NCBI GenBank assembly: GCA_029259185.1
Contig: JAPDJF010000047.1
Coordinates: forward strand, 1 to 20,267
Source of the DNA: Hadesarchaea archaeon
GTDB taxonomy: Archaea; Hadarchaeota; Hadarchaeia; Hadarchaeales; WYZ-LMO6
DNA length: 20,267 nt
Direction: 5' to 3'
Below are positions 5,704 through 11,433 of this stretch, piece by piece. The number at the start of each line of letters is the position of its first letter. The first letter of the stretch is position 1. The translations under genes were made by a program, and so were the position numbers. Below the pieces are notes generated by a model. That model ran no database searches. It saw only the letters and a list, made by a program, of their open reading frames with translations, and was not told where the DNA came from.

Positions 5704-7602
5704 TCAAGGAGGGTTACTGCCCAAGGCCCTCCGGACCTCCTCTATTGCGGTAGGATCTTCTATGGTGGAGTAGTCACCCAAGGGCTTATCCATGACGAGA
5801 GATTTCAATATTCGTCTCATGATCTTTCCACTCCTCGTTTTCGGAATTTTGGTCACGAAAACAAGTTTTCCGAATACCACTATCGGCCCCATTATGTTTC
5901 TAATCGTTTGAATGATCTCCTTTTTCAATTCCTCCTTTGGTTCCACTCCTCCTTTCAGGACTACGAATGCACACACGACTTCTTTCCTCAAAGGATCGGG
6001 CATCCCTGTAACCGCTGCCTCAGCCACGGCAGGATGGGTGAGGATTGCGCTCTCGATCTCTATCGTTCCCATCCTGTGCCCCGCTATTTTAATGACTTCG
6101 TCCGTTCTCGCGATGAACCACACGTATCCGTCCTCGTCCCGCTTAGCTGCATCACCCGTGTAGTAGCAGTTTGGAATTTTGCTCCAGTATTCTTCCACGT
6201 ACCGTTTGTCATCCCTCCACAAGGTTTGGATCAACCCCGGAAACGGTTTCCTGCATACGAAAATCCCCTCTATCCCGGGCGGGAGGGGTTCCCCTCTTTC
6301 ATCCACAACATCTCCTTCTATTCCGGGAAGGGGTATGGTGGCAGATCCGGGCTTTATCGGTAGGAGGGATATCCCGTAAGGATTTCCCACTATCGGTCCT
6401 CCGGTTTCAGTCTGCCACATGTGATCCACCACTGGGGCTCTGTCCTTCAACACTTTTTTCTGCAACCATTCCCAAGCGGGAGGATTCAGAGGCTCGCCCG
6501 CGGACGCGACGAATTTTATGCTACGCAAGTCATGTTTCAACGGAAGATCTTCTCCATACTTCATCAGAGACCTTATAAGAGTTGGCGAAACCCACATTTT
6601 GGTCACCTTGTGTTTCTCAACGATTTTCCAGAGTATGTCGGGAGAGGGATAATCGGGCGTGCCCTCATACATCACCGTCGTAGCCCCAACAAGCATCGGA
6701 CCGAAGAGAACGTAACTCGATCCCACGATCCATCCTATATCCGAAAGACAGAACCAAATATCACTCTCGTTCAATCCATACACCCACTTCCCCATAGCAT
6801 AAACGTGGACCTGATACCCCCCATGCGTATGGACTGTGCCCTTGGGCTTCGCTGTGGTGCCCGATGTGTGGAGTATAAAAGCTGGCTCATTGGCTTCCAT
6901 GGGTATCGCCTCGTGCTCCCCCTCTCCCATCTCCAAAGCCTCTTCCCAGTACAAGTCTCGATCCCTCCGCATCGGTGGTTCCTCGCTCCCCCTCCGGAGA
7001 ACCACTACTTTTTCAACTCCATCCACGAGTTCTAGGGCTTTGTCCGCGATACTTTTGAGTTGGATGATCGTACCCCTCCGGTAAGCCACATCAGAGGTGA
7101 GTAGCACTTTTGATCCAGCATTCTCTATTCGATCGGCCAGAGCCCGATATCCAAATCCAGCAAAAACCGGAGAGTATATCGCCCCTATTCGAAGGGTGGC
7201 AAAGATTCCAATTGCAGCTTCTGGAACCATTGGCATATAGAGGGTAACACGATCTCCTTTTTTGACTCCCAACGCCCTCAACGAGGACGCAAAACGCTTC
7301 ACCTCAGTCAGAAGTTGACCGTAGGTAAGGATCTTACTCTCTCCCCTCTCGGCAGACTCCCAGAGGATAGCCGGTTTATCTTTCCTCCCATTTAAAACGT
7401 TGTGATCAATACAGTTATATGAGATATTCGTCTTCCCGCCGACGAACCATTTGAAGAAAGGATATTTTTCCCGTTGAAAAACTCTCTCCCAAGGCTGAAA
7501 CCAGTAGAGTTCTCTCGCCACGTCTCCCCAAAACCCTTCCATATCCTTTGAGGCTCGCTCGATGAGTCTCCCCAATTCATCTGAAAACTCGATCCCACCC
7601 AT
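5704..7602 (-). CDS. acs: AMP-forming acetyl-CoA (acyl-CoA) synthetase
   Basis: HTSGTTAKPKG, WQTETGG, YYTGD, PKTRSGKIMRR (acetylation-site Lys). Confidence 0.93.
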   Translation of the reverse strand: MGGIEFSDELGRLIERASKDMEGFWGDVARELYWFQPWERVFQREKYPFFKWFVGGKTNISYNCIDHNVLNGRKDKPAILWESAERGESKILTYGQLLTEVKRFASSLRALGVKKGDRVTLYMPMVPEAAIGIFATLRIGAIYSPVFAGFGYRALADRIENAGSKVLLTSDVAYRRGTIIQLKSIADKALELVDGVEKVVVLRRGSEEPPMRRDRDLYWEEALEMGEGEHEAIPMEANEPAFILHTSGTTAKPKGTVHTHGGYQVHVYAMGKWVYGLNESDIWFCLSDIGWIVGSSYVLFGPMLVGATTVMYEGTPDYPSPDILWKIVEKHKVTKMWVSPTLIRSLMKYGEDLPLKHDLRSIKFVASAGEPLNPPAWEWLQKKVLKDRAPVVDHMWQTETGGPIVGNPYGISLLPIKPGSATIPLPGIEGDVVDERGEPLPPGIEGIFVCRKPFPGLIQTLWRDDKRYVEEYWSKIPNCYYTGDAAKRDEDGYVWFIARTDEVIKIAGHRMGTIEIESAILTHPAVAEAAVTGMPDPLRKEVVCAFVVLKGGVEPKEELKKEIIQTIRNIMGPIVVFGKLVFVTKIPKTRSGKIMRRILKSLVMDKPLGDYSTIEDPTAIEEVRRALGSNPP

Positions 7603-7625
7603 CCTCCACCCGATACTCCCCCCCT

Positions 7626-7634
7626 CTTATATGT
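7626..7634 (-). promoter_or_regulatory. Putative TATA box of acs
   Basis: ATATAAG on the minus strand ~25-30 nt upstream of the acs ATG. Confidence 0.45.
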
Positions 7635-7783
7635 GTTTCCAACACCCGTACGATTTTGGAAGCGCCAAGTGTCCCAGTCCATCCAATACTCGAAATCTTC
7701 AGGAGTTTCCCACTGGAACTACCCACCCCAAACCAAGGGGATTTCGGTATCGAGCCAAAATATTCAATAATTCTTTTCTCTCG

Positions 7784-7882
7784 TGGTGGGCCCGGAGGGA
7801 TTCGAACCCTCGATTTTCGCCTCGTGAAGGCGACGTTTGTCAGAGGTCCATTCTCCCCTCATGACCGCTAGACCACGGGCCC
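7784..7882 (-). tRNA. tRNA-Val(CAC) with a 23-nt intron at 23/24 (7837-7859); CCA encoded
   Basis: GGGCCCG acceptor, TCGCC-TTCACGA-GGCGA anticodon arm, GAGGG-TTCGAAT-CCCTC T arm, ACCA end. Removing AGGGGAGAATGGACCTCTGACAA gives a 76-nt cloverleaf. Confidence 0.93.
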
Positions 7883-7904
7883 ACCAATATTTTAGGTTCT
7901 TCCA

Positions 7905-7917
7905 ATTTAACTTAAAC
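7905..7917 (-). promoter_or_regulatory. Putative TATA box of tRNA-Val
   Basis: TTTAAGTTAAA on the minus strand ~25-35 nt upstream of the tRNA 5' end. Confidence 0.45.
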
Positions 7918-7999
7918 GTCCCACTCTAAATTTTGATACTCAATAGAAAGGAACCCAACATAATATTTGCGGGCCGGTATCATCCGGAGGTTCACGAGG

Positions 8000-8101
8000 T
8001 GGACCTTCCGCGGAGGACCCAAGAGCCCTCCTGGGCGGGATTCGAACCCGCGACCTCCCGCATGCCAAGCGGACGATCATACCAGGCTGATCTACCGGCC
8101 C
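8000..8101 (-). tRNA. tRNA-Ala(GGC) with a 27-nt intron in the acceptor stem at 67/68 (8006-8032)
   Basis: GGGCCGG-TA-GATC D arm, TCCGC-TTGGCAT-GCGGG anticodon arm, GCGGG-TTCGAAT-CCCGC T arm, then CC[intron]GGTCC-A-CC. Splicing restores a 7-bp acceptor stem with G3-U70 and A73. Confidence 0.9.
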
Positions 8102-8153
8102 ACCATCATAAATGGGATCCATAGGTTTATTGAATTTATTCTCGAAAGCCAAC

Positions 8154-8163
8154 TCAAAAAAAC
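8154..8163 (-). terminator. Putative oligo-T terminator after rpl37e
   Basis: T7 tract directly after the rpl37e stop. Confidence 0.5.
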
Positions 8164-8358
8164 TCACCGAAGCCGTATTCCTTGAACCTTTTTTGTTTTC
8201 CAGCTGTACCGATAGATTCTTCTTGTTCTACCGAACCCGCATGCCGCACAAACACCTTTCTGAAGATGAAACGCTCTTCGTCCACACCTCCTACAGCGGA
8301 CATGCACAACTTTGTGTCGCTTACCCATTGAAGGGGTACCTTTAACCACATAGCTCAC
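8164..8358 (-). CDS. rpl37e: 50S ribosomal protein L37e
   Basis: [15 protein letters not shown]...CAACGFG zinc finger; downstream of Lsm. The true start may be GTG at 8349. Confidence 0.96.
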
Positions 8359-8582
8359 TCCGCTGGGGAGATGTAGACCACATTATCGCCACGGATCATC
8401 ATTAGTCCATACCTCTTGGCTGGTTCCCCTCCTTGGAGCTCCTCGGCTTCCTCTAAGACTAGGTTCACATGAACATCGAATCCCACGAGTTTGCCCCGAA
8501 ATTCCCGTCCACCTTTGAGGCTCACCAGTACAGCTGACCCGAGAGCGCGATTCAGCAGGTCAAGTGGTCTTTGGGCTGCCAT
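8355..8582 (-). CDS. Sm-like archaeal protein (Lsm/SmAP1)
   Basis: RPLDLL, Sm1 G.L.GFD.HVNLVL, Sm2 [11 protein letters not shown]; ATG at 8582; Lsm-rpl37e synteny. Confidence 0.95.
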
Positions 8583-8604
8583 GGAATCACTATTTTTTCT
8601 CTCA

Positions 8605-8616
8605 AGATATTTAAGT
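8605..8616. promoter_or_regulatory. Possible shared TATA element between the divergent Lsm and PUA genes
   Basis: ATATTTAAGT lies ~25 nt from both starts in a 53-nt spacer. Confidence 0.4.
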
Positions 8617-8635
8617 AGGTATCTAACCATTAATC

Positions 8636-9145
8636 GTGACTCCGAAGAGGTACCACTTGAGAAAATCTGCCATCAGAAAACTTGCGAAACGGATCAAAGA
8701 GGAGTTCGGGGAAAAAACAGAGTTAAAGGGCAAAAAATTCGAAATGGTTGAGCTGAGAAAGAGAGAGGTACTGCTCGTAGATGACCTTCCTTTTTTATTC
8801 AAATCCGGGGATGAGATCTTTCCCACTCTGTATTCGGTGGAACGATTCGGGTTGAAGAAGGTTACGGTAGACATGGGCGCAGTTCCACACATCGTCAACG
8901 GAGCTGATGTTATGTCCCCAGGAGTGACTCAAGTAGATACTGAGATTTCTACCAATGATAAGGTAGTGGTGGTGGACGAGAGGCACGGAAAAGTGCTAGC
9001 TGTAGGTGTAGCGCTCGTCCCGGCAAGGGAGATGAAAAAACCGAAAGGGAAGGTAGTGAAAATTGCCCACCACGTGGGGGATGAGATATGGAATCTCACA
9101 CATATCGGAAAAAAGTTATATAAGGAAAAGTCTATGGACAATTGA
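8636..9145 (+). CDS. PUA-domain RNA-binding protein (MCT-1/Tma20-like)
   Basis: [31 protein letters not shown] motifs. Confidence 0.92.
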
Positions 9146-9150
9146 CACCT

Positions 9151-9528
9151 ATGCGAACTCTGAAAAAGCTCTTCAGCGGAGGGCAGAGATCGGTAGAACC
9201 GGAGAGAGCACCCGTGATGACCACTGAGGTTTCACAAATGAGGGAGCGCAGGGTGGGGATAGAGCCCATATACATAAAGAGCATGGATTTGGAGTCACCG
9301 GACGACCTCAAAAGAGTTGGAGATGAACTCCGATCAGGAAACATTGTGATCCTGAATATAGCTTCCTTTATGAGCCGTGACGTCGAGGGGCTCAAGCAGA
9401 CAATTGCCCAGCTCAAGGGGATATGCTATGCCATCGGTGGAGATATCGGACGTTTAAGCGATTCCTGGATAGTAGCCACTCCGAAGTACGTCACGATCCA
9501 ATTTCGCGGGAAAGAGACTACGGTTTGA
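9151..9528 (+). CDS. sepF: Cell division protein SepF
   Basis: ELRSGNIVILNI, IGGDIGRL, IVATP motifs; ATG at 9151 preferred over TTG at 9142. Confidence 0.88.
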   Translation: MRTLKKLFSGGQRSVEPERAPVMTTEVSQMRERRVGIEPIYIKSMDLESPDDLKRVGDELRSGNIVILNIASFMSRDVEGLKQTIAQLKGICYAIGGDIGRLSDSWIVATPKYVTIQFRGKETTV

Positions 9529-11433
9529 TCACTGCAACCTCACCGTTTCCAAATTCGGAGGTGCTCTGGTCTCTACCCTAAAAAGTTTATGTAATGCGCT
9601 CGCCAGACTCACGCATTTGTCCTCATCCCCATGACAACATATTATCCTAGAAGGTTTTGGTGAGAGCCTCCTGACGTAGTTAAGCAGTTGAGCCCGATCG
9701 GAGTGGCCGCTAAACCCGTCTATGGTCTCGATCCTCATGTTAACGTTTATAACTTCCATCCTTCCATCTTGCGATCTCATCGGTACCTCCTTCCACCCTT
9801 TTTGAATCCGTCGACCCAATGAACCCTCACTCTGATATCCCACGAACACGAGGGTGTTTTTTGGGTCGGGTGCAAATTTTTTGAAGTATTCCAGAACCGG
9901 ACCTCCGGTCATCATTCCCGCGGTGGCCAAGATTATACAGGGGGGACCCTCCATTATCTCCGACCGTTGGTCAGGGGTCGTCACCCTGACGAACATCTCG
10001 GAGAGGAATGGGTTGCTATCATCTTGGAATATCAACTTCCTCAAACCTGGGGACAAGTATTCGGGATACACGGTGTGAATCGCGGTGGCTTCCCATATCA
10101 TGCCATCCAGATACACATCTCCATCAAAGAGTCCTTTCCTATGAAACTCCTCAAGCAACACCATTATCTCCTGGGCCCTTCCAACCGCAAAAACCGGTAT
10201 CAACACTTTTCCACCCTTCTCGATCGTTTCCCTTATGACTCCCAAGAGTCTTCGCTCAGCCTCCGCTCTCGGCAACTGCATGTTATCGGATCCGCCGTAG
10301 GTGCTCTCCATTATCAAGGTCTCCACTCTCGGAAAAGTACACATAGCCGGAAAGAACAGTTTGGTTCGATCGAATTTTATGTCCCCCGTGTACACGACGT
10401 TGTGCAATCCCTCCCCAACATGGATGTGGACGATAGACGATCCCAAGATGTGTCCCGCGTTATACAGAGTTATCTTAATGTCCGGAGAGATATCAGTCAC
10501 TTCCCCCCACTCCAAGGGGATCGAGTGATGGACGAAAGAACGGATATCCTTTCGATCGTAAGGGAGTGGTCTATCCTCCCTCTCCGCGACCTCGATGAAA
10601 TCTTGGAGGAGAAGTACCGCGAGGTCCCGGGTCGGTGTGGTACAGTAGACGGGCCCCTCGTACCCATATTTGTACAAGTAGGGGACGAAACCCATATGAT
10701 CCAGATGGGCGTGGGTGATCACCACCGCATCTAGCTCGGCTATCCTGACCTCGGGTACTTCTAAATGGGGATAAGCCCTATCGTCAGAAGCCACATTCAA
10801 CCCACAATCCAACATCACCTTGCTTTCAGGGGTTTGGAGTAAGAGCGAGGATCTTCCGACTTCTCTAGCTCCACCCAACATCGTGACCCTGACCCAGTCT
10901 CCCCTCGCCCTAGGCTCTCGATGAATTCTCCTCCCTATCTTCTGCATTATTCCCCGATCTTTACTGCTTGACTGAATCAGTGAAAGACGGATGTTTTGAA
11001 TCAATTCGGATTGGATGGGTGGTGTTCGCACAACCTTCGGGGTCCAACCGATTTCGTTCATTATCCTTCGGAGGAGGGTACCATCCTTTCCTATAACCAC
11101 TCCTGGTTTCTTCGCCTCTATGGTGACCTCGCCGAGCGACTCATCAAATATTATGTTCGTTATCCCCGCGGTCTCAGGAACTAGGTTATTTATTTTTTCC
11201 TCAGCTTCCTTGGGATCGATGAGTAGCTTGGGGTCGGGGCGAAGAAGCACGCGCTTGTGGAGTTTACGCGCCAACTCCTTGATCACTTCTCCATTCTGGG
11301 TCAGGGGCTCCAAGTTCTTACAATAAAGCACCACCCGGGGTCCCTCGAAATCCACACCTGATACGGACTCCCCAAATGGTGTCTCTTCTTTCACCACTTT
11401 CTTTATCTGCTCGAGTAGTTCCTCGGCCGCCAT
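9529..11433 (-). CDS. fttA: Beta-CASP ribonuclease aCPSF1 / termination factor FttA
   Basis: N-terminal KH domains (KPGVVIGKDG), HAHLDH, AGHILGS, FSGHSD, HGD motifs; downstream of psmB. Confidence 0.96.
   Translation of the reverse strand: MAAEELLEQIKKVVKEETPFGESVSGVDFEGPRVVLYCKNLEPLTQNGEVIKELARKLHKRVLLRPDPKLLIDPKEAEEKINNLVPETAGITNIIFDESLGEVTIEAKKPGVVIGKDGTLLRRIMNEIGWTPKVVRTPPIQSELIQNIRLSLIQSSSKDRGIMQKIGRRIHREPRARGDWVRVTMLGGAREVGRSSLLLQTPESKVMLDCGLNVASDDRAYPHLEVPEVRIAELDAVVITHAHLDHMGFVPYLYKYGYEGPVYCTTPTRDLAVLLLQDFIEVAEREDRPLPYDRKDIRSFVHHSIPLEWGEVTDISPDIKITLYNAGHILGSSIVHIHVGEGLHNVVYTGDIKFDRTKLFFPAMCTFPRVETLIMESTYGGSDNMQLPRAEAERRLLGVIRETIEKGGKVLIPVFAVGRAQEIMVLLEEFHRKGLFDGDVYLDGMIWEATAIHTVYPEYLSPGLRKLIFQDDSNPFLSEMFVRVTTPDQRSEIMEGPPCIILATAGMMTGGPVLEYFKKFAPDPKNTLVFVGYQSEGSLGRRIQKGWKEVPMRSQDGRMEVINVNMRIETIDGFSGHSDRAQLLNYVRRLSPKPSRIICCHGDEDKCVSLASALHKLFRVETRAPPNLETVRLQ

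Follow-up and report, generated by a model that had tools for sequence, protein, structure and literature searches.

A tRNA-Ala(GGC) gene of a hydrothermal-vent Hadarchaeota archaeon is split close to its 3' end by a 27-nucleotide (nt) insert that is probably a working intron. The gene lies on the minus strand, at 8101..8000 of the 20,267-nt stretch of genomic DNA that was analysed (contig JAPDJF010000047.1 of assembly GCA_029259185.1, hereafter the window). The insert, at 8032..8006, splits the tRNA between nucleotides 67 and 68, six bases before its 3' end. The anatomy of the gene, the conservation and covariation of the insert among its homologues and the splicing enzyme genes of the same genome together suggest that the insert is removed by the endonuclease EndA and the exons joined by the ligase RtcB in the expression of a functional gene. 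Judging from the sequence, we put the probability of this reading at about 0.8.

Exon 1 (8033..8101, minus strand) comprises tRNA nucleotides 1-67 and holds the acceptor 5' strand, the D arm, the GGC anticodon arm, the T arm, C66 and C67, as defined by reading of the sequence, the Rfam match and ARAGORN. Following the 3' strand of the T stem (CCCGC, 8039..8035), the order is C66, C67, the 27-nt insert, GGTCC, the discriminator A and CC. The GGTCC and the discriminator A form exon 2 (8000..8005, minus strand, nucleotides 68-73), which was assigned from the sequence, ARAGORN and the orthologues, and the CC directly after it occupies 7999..7998. When 8032..8006 was excised by script, ARAGORN returned a 77-nt tRNA-Ala(GGC) with a perfect cloverleaf, a 7-base-pair (bp) acceptor stem and the G3:U70 pair. 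The same run on the unspliced sequence called nothing. An earlier reading of the DNA, made from the letters alone (the first-pass annotation), had placed an interruption by 8006-8032 at position 67/68 and had predicted that its excision restores the 7-bp stem and G3-U70. The sequence, ARAGORN and the orthologues bear out the placement, and ARAGORN agrees with the prediction on the spliced sequence.

The insert conceals the gene from routine annotation. In the unedited window, ARAGORN did not call tRNA-Ala(GGC) or any other tRNA, and the Rfam tRNA model matched the gene over model positions 6-65 only (8096..8033, 41.3 bits). Thus, standard scanners truncate or miss tRNA-Ala(GGC), as the first-pass annotation had warned they might. 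With its intron option, ARAGORN returned from window positions 7784-8101 a false tRNA-Ala chimera with a 241-nt "intron", in which the Ala 5' acceptor strand is joined to the 3' end of the neighbouring tRNA-Val; this is an annotation trap for automated pipelines.

The boundaries of the insert are fixed by comparison with uninterrupted genes. The gene was queried against 60 related genomes, and all strong matches among these relatives end exactly at query position 83, which is C67. Thirty loci were retrieved (29 from relatives and the window's own), from which 25 orthologous Ala-GGC genes were parsed, with 4 loci unparsed. The T stem runs straight into CCGGTCCA, with no insert, in 24/24 parsed orthologues, and one further orthologue is cut by a contig end. 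Exon 1 is 97% identical to the uninterrupted orthologues of a sister genus. A pattern scan of 66 genomes of the phylum found the 67/68 insert solely in this genome (G000), and it was missing from the 65 others; because a match requires both this T arm and this acceptor end, the scan would overlook inserts in other tRNAs. The other two matches to the pattern (G002 and G003) were ordinary tRNA-Leu genes. Ala-GGC genes of relatives carry introns at other sites, namely in the T arm (L012 and L020), at 37/38 (L026) and after the anticodon stem (L029), and the T-arm introns likewise end in a 4-nt helix strand followed by AA, like the intron at 67/68. A second copy of the 27-nt intron was not found in the genome by blastn-short, the best match being an exact one of 14 nt at C1:87718 (E 0.06); transposition of the intron from another tRNA of the same genome is therefore unsupported.

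The sequence around the insert forms a bulge-helix-bulge (BHB) motif, the structure recognized in archaeal splicing substrates. The 5' strand of its central helix is the CCGC of tRNA nucleotides 62-65 (8035..8038, minus strand), which belongs to the 3' strand of the T stem and is invariant in all four intron-bearing genes described here. It pairs with the GCGG of the intron (8008..8011, minus strand), base 8038 to 8035 against 8008 to 8011. The 5' bulge consists of C66, C67 and the first intron base (CC^A), and the 3' bulge of AA and G68 (AA^G, 8007..8005). Between the two central strands the intron folds into a hairpin (8012..8031, minus strand) with a 4-nt loop, in which the inner helix (h') GGAGG/CCTCC can be extended to 8 bp; this hairpin is seen both in folding and in the covariation of four sequences. 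The motif thus presents two 3-nt bulges on opposite strands with a 4-bp helix between them, and cutting after the second base of each bulge yields exactly the boundaries that the orthologues fix. The central helix, the two bulges and the GGAGG/CCTCC hairpin had all been proposed in the first-pass annotation, and both the sequence and folding confirm them.

Such a fit is rare by chance. When 27-nt segments on both strands of the genome were examined for a 4-bp helix between 3-nt bulges, together with an inner helix of 5 bp or more, with boundaries fixed, 469 of 2,531,968 matched this geometry (1.9e-4). With an inner helix of at least 8 bp, as observed here, the count fell to 34 of 2,531,968 (1.3e-5).

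On the exon side, the contiguous helix is a single pair, C61:G69, and the motif is accordingly of the relaxed HBh' form, with central and inner helices and without the outer helix. It falls outside the strict hBHBh' form, for which an outer helix of at least 2 bp is needed: the inner helix has 8 bp and the contiguous outer helix 1 bp. The earlier estimate of an outer helix of about 1 bp holds for the contiguous helix but is incomplete as a picture of the whole, since the 3' trailer adds long-range pairings. These pairings start only beyond an internal loop and are not contiguous with the central helix. Because one of the T-stem strands is taken up by the central helix, the pre-tRNA can adopt either the cloverleaf or the splicing fold, but not both. 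At 70 °C, central helix, 5' bulge and hairpin are all part of the minimum-energy fold of the window pre-tRNA.

Homologous introns at the same position were found in metagenomes. Metagenome contigs were scanned for this T arm followed by a gap of 18-40 nt and the acceptor end, which returned 47 stretches. Three of these were called as tRNA by ARAGORN only with the gap removed, and their introns lie exactly at 67/68: L106 (Ala-GGC, 28-nt insert), L116 (Ala-CGC, 26-nt insert) and L119 (Ala-CGC, 28-nt insert, together with a canonical intron). The other 44 were ordinary tRNAs or sequence outside tRNA genes, with GGTCCAC downstream by chance. L106 shares synteny with the window, Ala and Val being followed by a protein of 49% identity, and the contig of L116 encodes a protein 63% identical to one of this genome, which indicates that these contigs come from organisms that are related to the present one but distinct from it. 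Each of the four inserts has GCGG followed by AA at its end. The sequences of the hairpins differ and their pairing is kept, with both sides changed in 6 of 7 helix pairs of the four-sequence alignment. Hairpin cells in this alignment are paired at 95.5%, compared with 38.6-56.8% when partners are slid, and the observed covariation score was reached by 1 of 500 shuffles. These data are what would be expected of a maintained BHB hairpin; since the sequences number four, two of them close kin, the covariation is suggestive and falls short of statistical proof.

The insert was also recovered independently. A contig from a run of a different study matches window positions 7857-8038 with 0 differences and takes in the trailer and exon 2 as well as the entire insert, together with 6 nt of exon 1. 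It bridges the junction of exon 2 and intron by more than 31 nt on each side, and that of intron and exon 1 by 6 nt only. Other contigs of those runs match exon 1 only and then continue into an uninterrupted 3' end; these belong to other organisms.

Both enzymes required by the proposed reaction, a splicing endonuclease and the RtcB ligase, are encoded in the genome. Its one EndA gene (C15:35330-35860, 177 amino acids) matches PF01974 at 123.8 bits, and the best structural relative of the protein over its full length is the alpha4 EndA of M. jannaschii (135 bits). In public genomes, the closest EndA loci all bear the label Hadarchaeota or Hadesarchaea. Neither the beta-subunit model NF007085 nor the EndA protein as query detected a second EndA copy at E up to 10 in this 95%-complete genome, save for a 12.5-bit match at chance level. 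The RtcB gene is present at C5 (PF01139, 520 bits). Its match falls into two parts (C5:18449-21118; L032 and L033), one to model positions 1-52 and the other to 49-426, with about 1.3 kb between them in a single open frame of 941 amino acids, an arrangement that suggests an in-frame insertion such as an intein.

The intron-bearing genes share a second feature, a trailer with two blocks complementary to the tRNA itself. The distal block, TACCGGCCC (7971..7979, minus strand), is the perfect complement of tRNA nucleotides 1-9, as seen in the sequence, duplex energies and RNAalifold, and amounts to a decoy 3' acceptor strand in which C replaces U70. The motif CCGGCCC stands about 20 nt downstream of the tRNA in 4/4 intron-bearing Ala genes, versus 0/24 intron-less orthologues. 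Between the tRNA and this block sits the other (7986..7997, minus strand), which, according to duplex energies and folds, is complementary to tRNA nucleotides ~42-56 (T-arm 5' side and variable region). The duplex of the 5' acceptor strand with the trailer reaches -19.3 to -19.9 kcal/mol in the four intron-bearing genes, versus -2.1 to -16.3 kcal/mol in the 24 intron-less orthologues. For the 5' side of the T arm, the duplex with the trailer has -16.2 kcal/mol in the window and -19.3 to -24.5 kcal/mol in L106, L116 and L119, and the 24 intron-less orthologues range from -4.1 to -17.7 kcal/mol. RNAalifold pairs nucleotides 1-9 with the trailer in 4/4 sequences.

Folding calculations are consistent with an effect of the trailer on the choice between the two structures. 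In the partition function at 37 °C, the central helix of L106, L116 and L119 has a probability of 0.86-0.94 with the trailer and of 0.01-0.08 without it, when these three instead hold the T stem with a probability of 0.89-0.98. For the window at 60-75 °C, the trailer lifts the probability of the central helix from 0.62 to 0.73 and from 0.53 to 0.72, and shuffled trailers on the same gene average 0.26-0.29, with single shuffles coming close to the real one. For binding to exon 1 at 70 °C, the prediction is -1.0 to -4.4 kcal/mol with a 3' fragment ending at nucleotide 75 and -9.6 to -13.5 kcal/mol with one that includes the trailer.

A mirror image of this arrangement is found at the 5' end of another tRNA of the genome. 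The tRNA-Asn(GUU) gene (G000:C12:18629-18795; L136/L137) carries a 17-nt intron after nucleotide 8. The label of this locus in our tRNA census, described below, was Ala-CGC; it was read as Asn from C3:G70, G73 and a GTT loop shared with relatives. Its leader holds, 10 bases upstream, a second copy of the 5' acceptor strand, GCCGGGG. Thirty Asn loci were compared (29 from relatives and this genome's own; 2 unparsed). The intron after nucleotide 8 is present in 17 of them, where the leader copy is exact in 16 cases and degenerate in 1, and absent from 11, none of which has the leader copy. In the minimum-energy fold with the leader, the copy pairs with the 3' acceptor strand and the real 5' strand pairs with the intron to form the BHB; without the leader, the ordinary acceptor stem forms. 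Two unrelated tRNAs thus combine a mini-exon-forming intron with an element in the flank that pairs with the displaced strands. The tRNA-Asn gene also has a 60-nt canonical intron, of which the core around CATGGATGAAGA...CCTC is conserved across families.

From these observations we infer the following course of events. The gene would be transcribed with the 27-nt BHB intron inside the 3' strand of the acceptor stem. In the splicing fold, T-stem nucleotides 62-65 would pair with the intron GCGG, the CC^A and AA^G bulges would present the scissile bonds, and the hairpin would serve as the inner helix. The single alpha-type EndA would then cut after the second nucleotide of each bulge, and RtcB would link C67 and G68, so that the 3' end matches the one found uninterrupted in the genes of relatives. 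In the BHB fold, the acceptor 5' strand and the T arm's 5' side lose their partners, and the two antisense blocks of the trailer may pair with them instead. Such pairing could both favour the BHB over the cloverleaf and tether the 6-nt 3' exon to the body of the tRNA between cleavage and ligation. Following ligation, the continuous 3' strand would displace the trailer, which would be trimmed off.

We give somewhat less than even odds to the part of this model in which the flank elements act as a fold switch and mini-exon tether, because co-occurrence may reflect shared origin and the thermodynamic predictions are soft. More speculatively still, it may be a rule that introns leaving a mini-exon of 6-8 nt of the acceptor stem, at either end of the tRNA, come with a dedicated decoy or antisense element in the flank that acts as both switch and tether. 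If true, the rule would account for the very existence of acceptor-stem introns, and for the way in which such introns are handled at high temperature by a single-subunit EndA that has no evident specificity loop.

Several observations weigh against splicing as proposed or against a role for the trailer. As to expression, a search for RNA runs covering window positions 6000-10000 found none. As to the substrate, only one contiguous base pair flanks the 3' splice site, and at 37 °C the BHB-constrained fold of the window pre-tRNA lies 5.7 kcal/mol above the minimum. As to the enzyme, alpha4 EndA is described as strict for the canonical BHB in the portion of PMC5829648 covered here, and the phmmer alignment with the M. 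jannaschii EndA contains no inserted loop of 3 or more residues, so that the L3 loop reported for a Hadesarchaeon is not confirmed in this protein. The intron-bearing Ala genes known number only four, and L116 and L119 are close kin. As to the trailer, the window pre-tRNA at 37 °C keeps its T stem either way, with a central-helix probability of 0.12 with the trailer and 0.09 without it. Individual shuffled trailers give a central-helix probability as high as the real one does (maxima 0.66-0.98). In addition, the trailer of L007 (G004:C24), an intron-less orthologue of the sister genus, pairs fairly strongly with both targets (-16.3 kcal/mol with nucleotides 1-9 and -17.7 kcal/mol with the T-arm side), and the trailer blocks are thus not strictly tied to the intron. 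More generally, intron and flank would also occur together if they had an origin in common, and co-occurrence alone does not tell this from function. The L007 trailer resembles that of the window with small indels and looks like a decayed version of it; this could reflect precise loss of the intron, or a trailer older than the intron.

The alternative that survives best accepts a real and spliced intron and holds that the trailer and the Asn leader copy have no role, being a scar of the insert's origin, such as a local duplication or the integration and loss of a mobile element bearing tRNA-like sequence. Integration of mobile elements has been proposed as a route to both tRNA intron gain and scattered tRNA fragments (PMC3293823, in the part covered), the L106 trailer loosely resembles its own gene from the T loop to the 3' end, and the intron-less L007 retains a partial trailer. 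However, when the trailers were aligned with the 3' quarter of their own genes, the local alignments were no better than those of shuffles (p 0.1-0.4; 0.29, 0.10, 0.41 and 0.12 for the four genes), and a degenerate duplicate of the tRNA 3' quarter is therefore an unsupported source of the trailer. Moreover, C stands in place of U70 in 4/4 trailers; the change improves pairing with nucleotide 3 but would abolish Ala identity, and so speaks for selection on pairing and not for decay of a copy. The three lineages also use different registers to pair a common T-arm region, and 16 of 17 intron-bearing Asn loci, from three families, have kept the leader copy while the surrounding leader has diverged. 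We therefore consider a roleless flank unlikely, though it is the most serious competitor.

The possibility that the gene is decaying, with Ala-GGC inactivated by a random insertion of 27 bases and its GCC and GCU codons read by another tRNA, appears quite improbable. The absence of the insert from all 65 other genomes searched in the phylum would fit such an accident, as would a metagenome-derived assembly (1.27 Mb in 54 contigs) that is 94.94% complete rather than 100%. However, the first-pass annotation had called for a search for a further Ala-GGC gene, and neither the Rfam matches nor a scan for GGC stem-loops found one in this genome: the 40 Rfam tRNA matches include Ala-UGC, Ala-CGC and Ala-GGC once each, and of 17 stem-loops with a GGC anticodon, the one in a tRNA context is the present gene. 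The exons are intact, with the 97% identity to orthologues given above, the fit of the BHB to the boundaries has a chance probability of about 1e-4 to 1e-5, and homologous introns with compensatory changes occur on three other contigs. An artefact of assembly or binning, by which the insert would be foreign to the DNA of the organism, would be conceivable for a 54-contig metagenome assembly and is hardly credible given the identical contig of a different study and the related inserts at the same site in other metagenomes.

The splicing reading that we favour fits a genome with other interrupted tRNA genes. A rough BHB-guided census found non-canonical inserts in three Val genes, two Gln genes, Ser-GCT, Asn and this Ala-GGC. 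Several of these inserts have little or no outer helix, and that of Ala-GGC alone lies in the 3' acceptor strand. The census is noisy, with several isotype labels wrong where alternative registers score higher, and it was used only for the presence of inserts; it gave no call for one of the 40 Rfam matches (C37:4131-4201), which it did not resolve into a cloverleaf. Asp, His, Tyr and initiator Met are among the isotypes that it left without a confident assignment, and more heavily interrupted tRNA genes probably remain in the genome. The neighbouring tRNA-Val(CAC) gene (window 7787-7882, minus strand) has a D-arm insert of 23-25 nt after nucleotide 23, with a BHB of 4-bp inner and 3-bp outer helix, and the other Val genes (C2:17908-18004 and C17:24646-24734) are interrupted at the same site.

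BHB introns in the acceptor stem are a category already known. In the portions of the literature covered, BHB motifs, whether canonical or relaxed, are described in the acceptor stem too (PMC6379350, PMC12397907), tRNAscan-SE 2.0 is described as extending flanks to catch introns near tRNA ends (PMC8450103), and a few acceptor-stem inserts are mentioned in Asgard archaea (preprint 10.64898/2026.10.13.758758). Position 3/4 is the sole acceptor-stem position named in the text covered of PMC4090602. The novelty is thus narrower than the first-pass annotation had hinted; as to the site, a limited literature search, with primary catalogues and supplements outside its scope, returned no description of an intron at 67/68 or of flank decoys. 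The intron belongs to a known kind; its site is rare and its host unusual. The module of intron plus flank, as read from sequence and folding, would be a new variant.

These findings bear on both annotation and evolution. Standard annotation would make this genome appear to lack tRNA-Ala(GGC), and the same applies to the relatives and to tRNA-Asn. The Ala introns of Hadarchaeota, at 37/38, after the anticodon stem, in the T arm and at 67/68, offer a clean system for dating intron gains and losses beyond the TACK and Asgard archaea. If the flank elements work as proposed, they would explain how a six-nucleotide exon stays put between cleavage and ligation in a thermophile, and the logic of leader and trailer pairing in split tRNAs would extend to one-piece genes. 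One recombinant enzyme and a small set of transcripts would be enough to test the flank-element hypothesis directly.

Among known systems, the closest in structure are the non-canonical introns of Thermoproteales, Thaumarchaeota, Asgard and DPANN archaea, including the 3/4 intron of some Thermoproteales. Like these, the Ala-GGC intron is short and lies outside 37/38, has two 3-nt bulges 4 bp apart in a relaxed HBh' motif, and would be removed by EndA and a ligase. It differs from them in its place in the 3' strand of the acceptor stem, its 6-nt 3' exon and its antisense flank blocks, and its host is a Hadarchaeote rather than a TACK archaeon; in the parts covered, the position lists of known introns name none on the acceptor 3' strand. 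The closest host is the Hadesarchaeon in which Kaneta et al. (2018, PMC5829648) report an alpha4-type EndA combined with a marked increase in disrupted tRNA genes. Like the present genome, it belongs to this phylum, has one alpha-type EndA gene and carries numerous interrupted tRNA genes, as far as the text covered goes; that report concerns one other genome, YNP_N21, and its main text gives no positions or flank elements.

The proposed use of flanking sequence finds its nearest parallel in the split tRNAs of Nanoarchaeum equitans and its relatives and in permuted tRNAs, where pairing outside the tRNA holds the exons beside a relaxed BHB for EndA and ligase to act on (PMC4090602, in the text covered). 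In contrast to split tRNAs, the Ala-GGC pieces share a transcript, a flank pairs with an exon rather than with another flank, and the flank would be removed by end trimming rather than at the BHB. With the mobile-element model drawn from Caldiarchaeum (PMC3293823, in the part covered), the Ala-GGC gene shares a recent, lineage-specific gain and tRNA-like sequence near the gene; it differs in that no recombinase or element adjoins it and that its trailer is not significantly similar to the 3' part of the tRNA.

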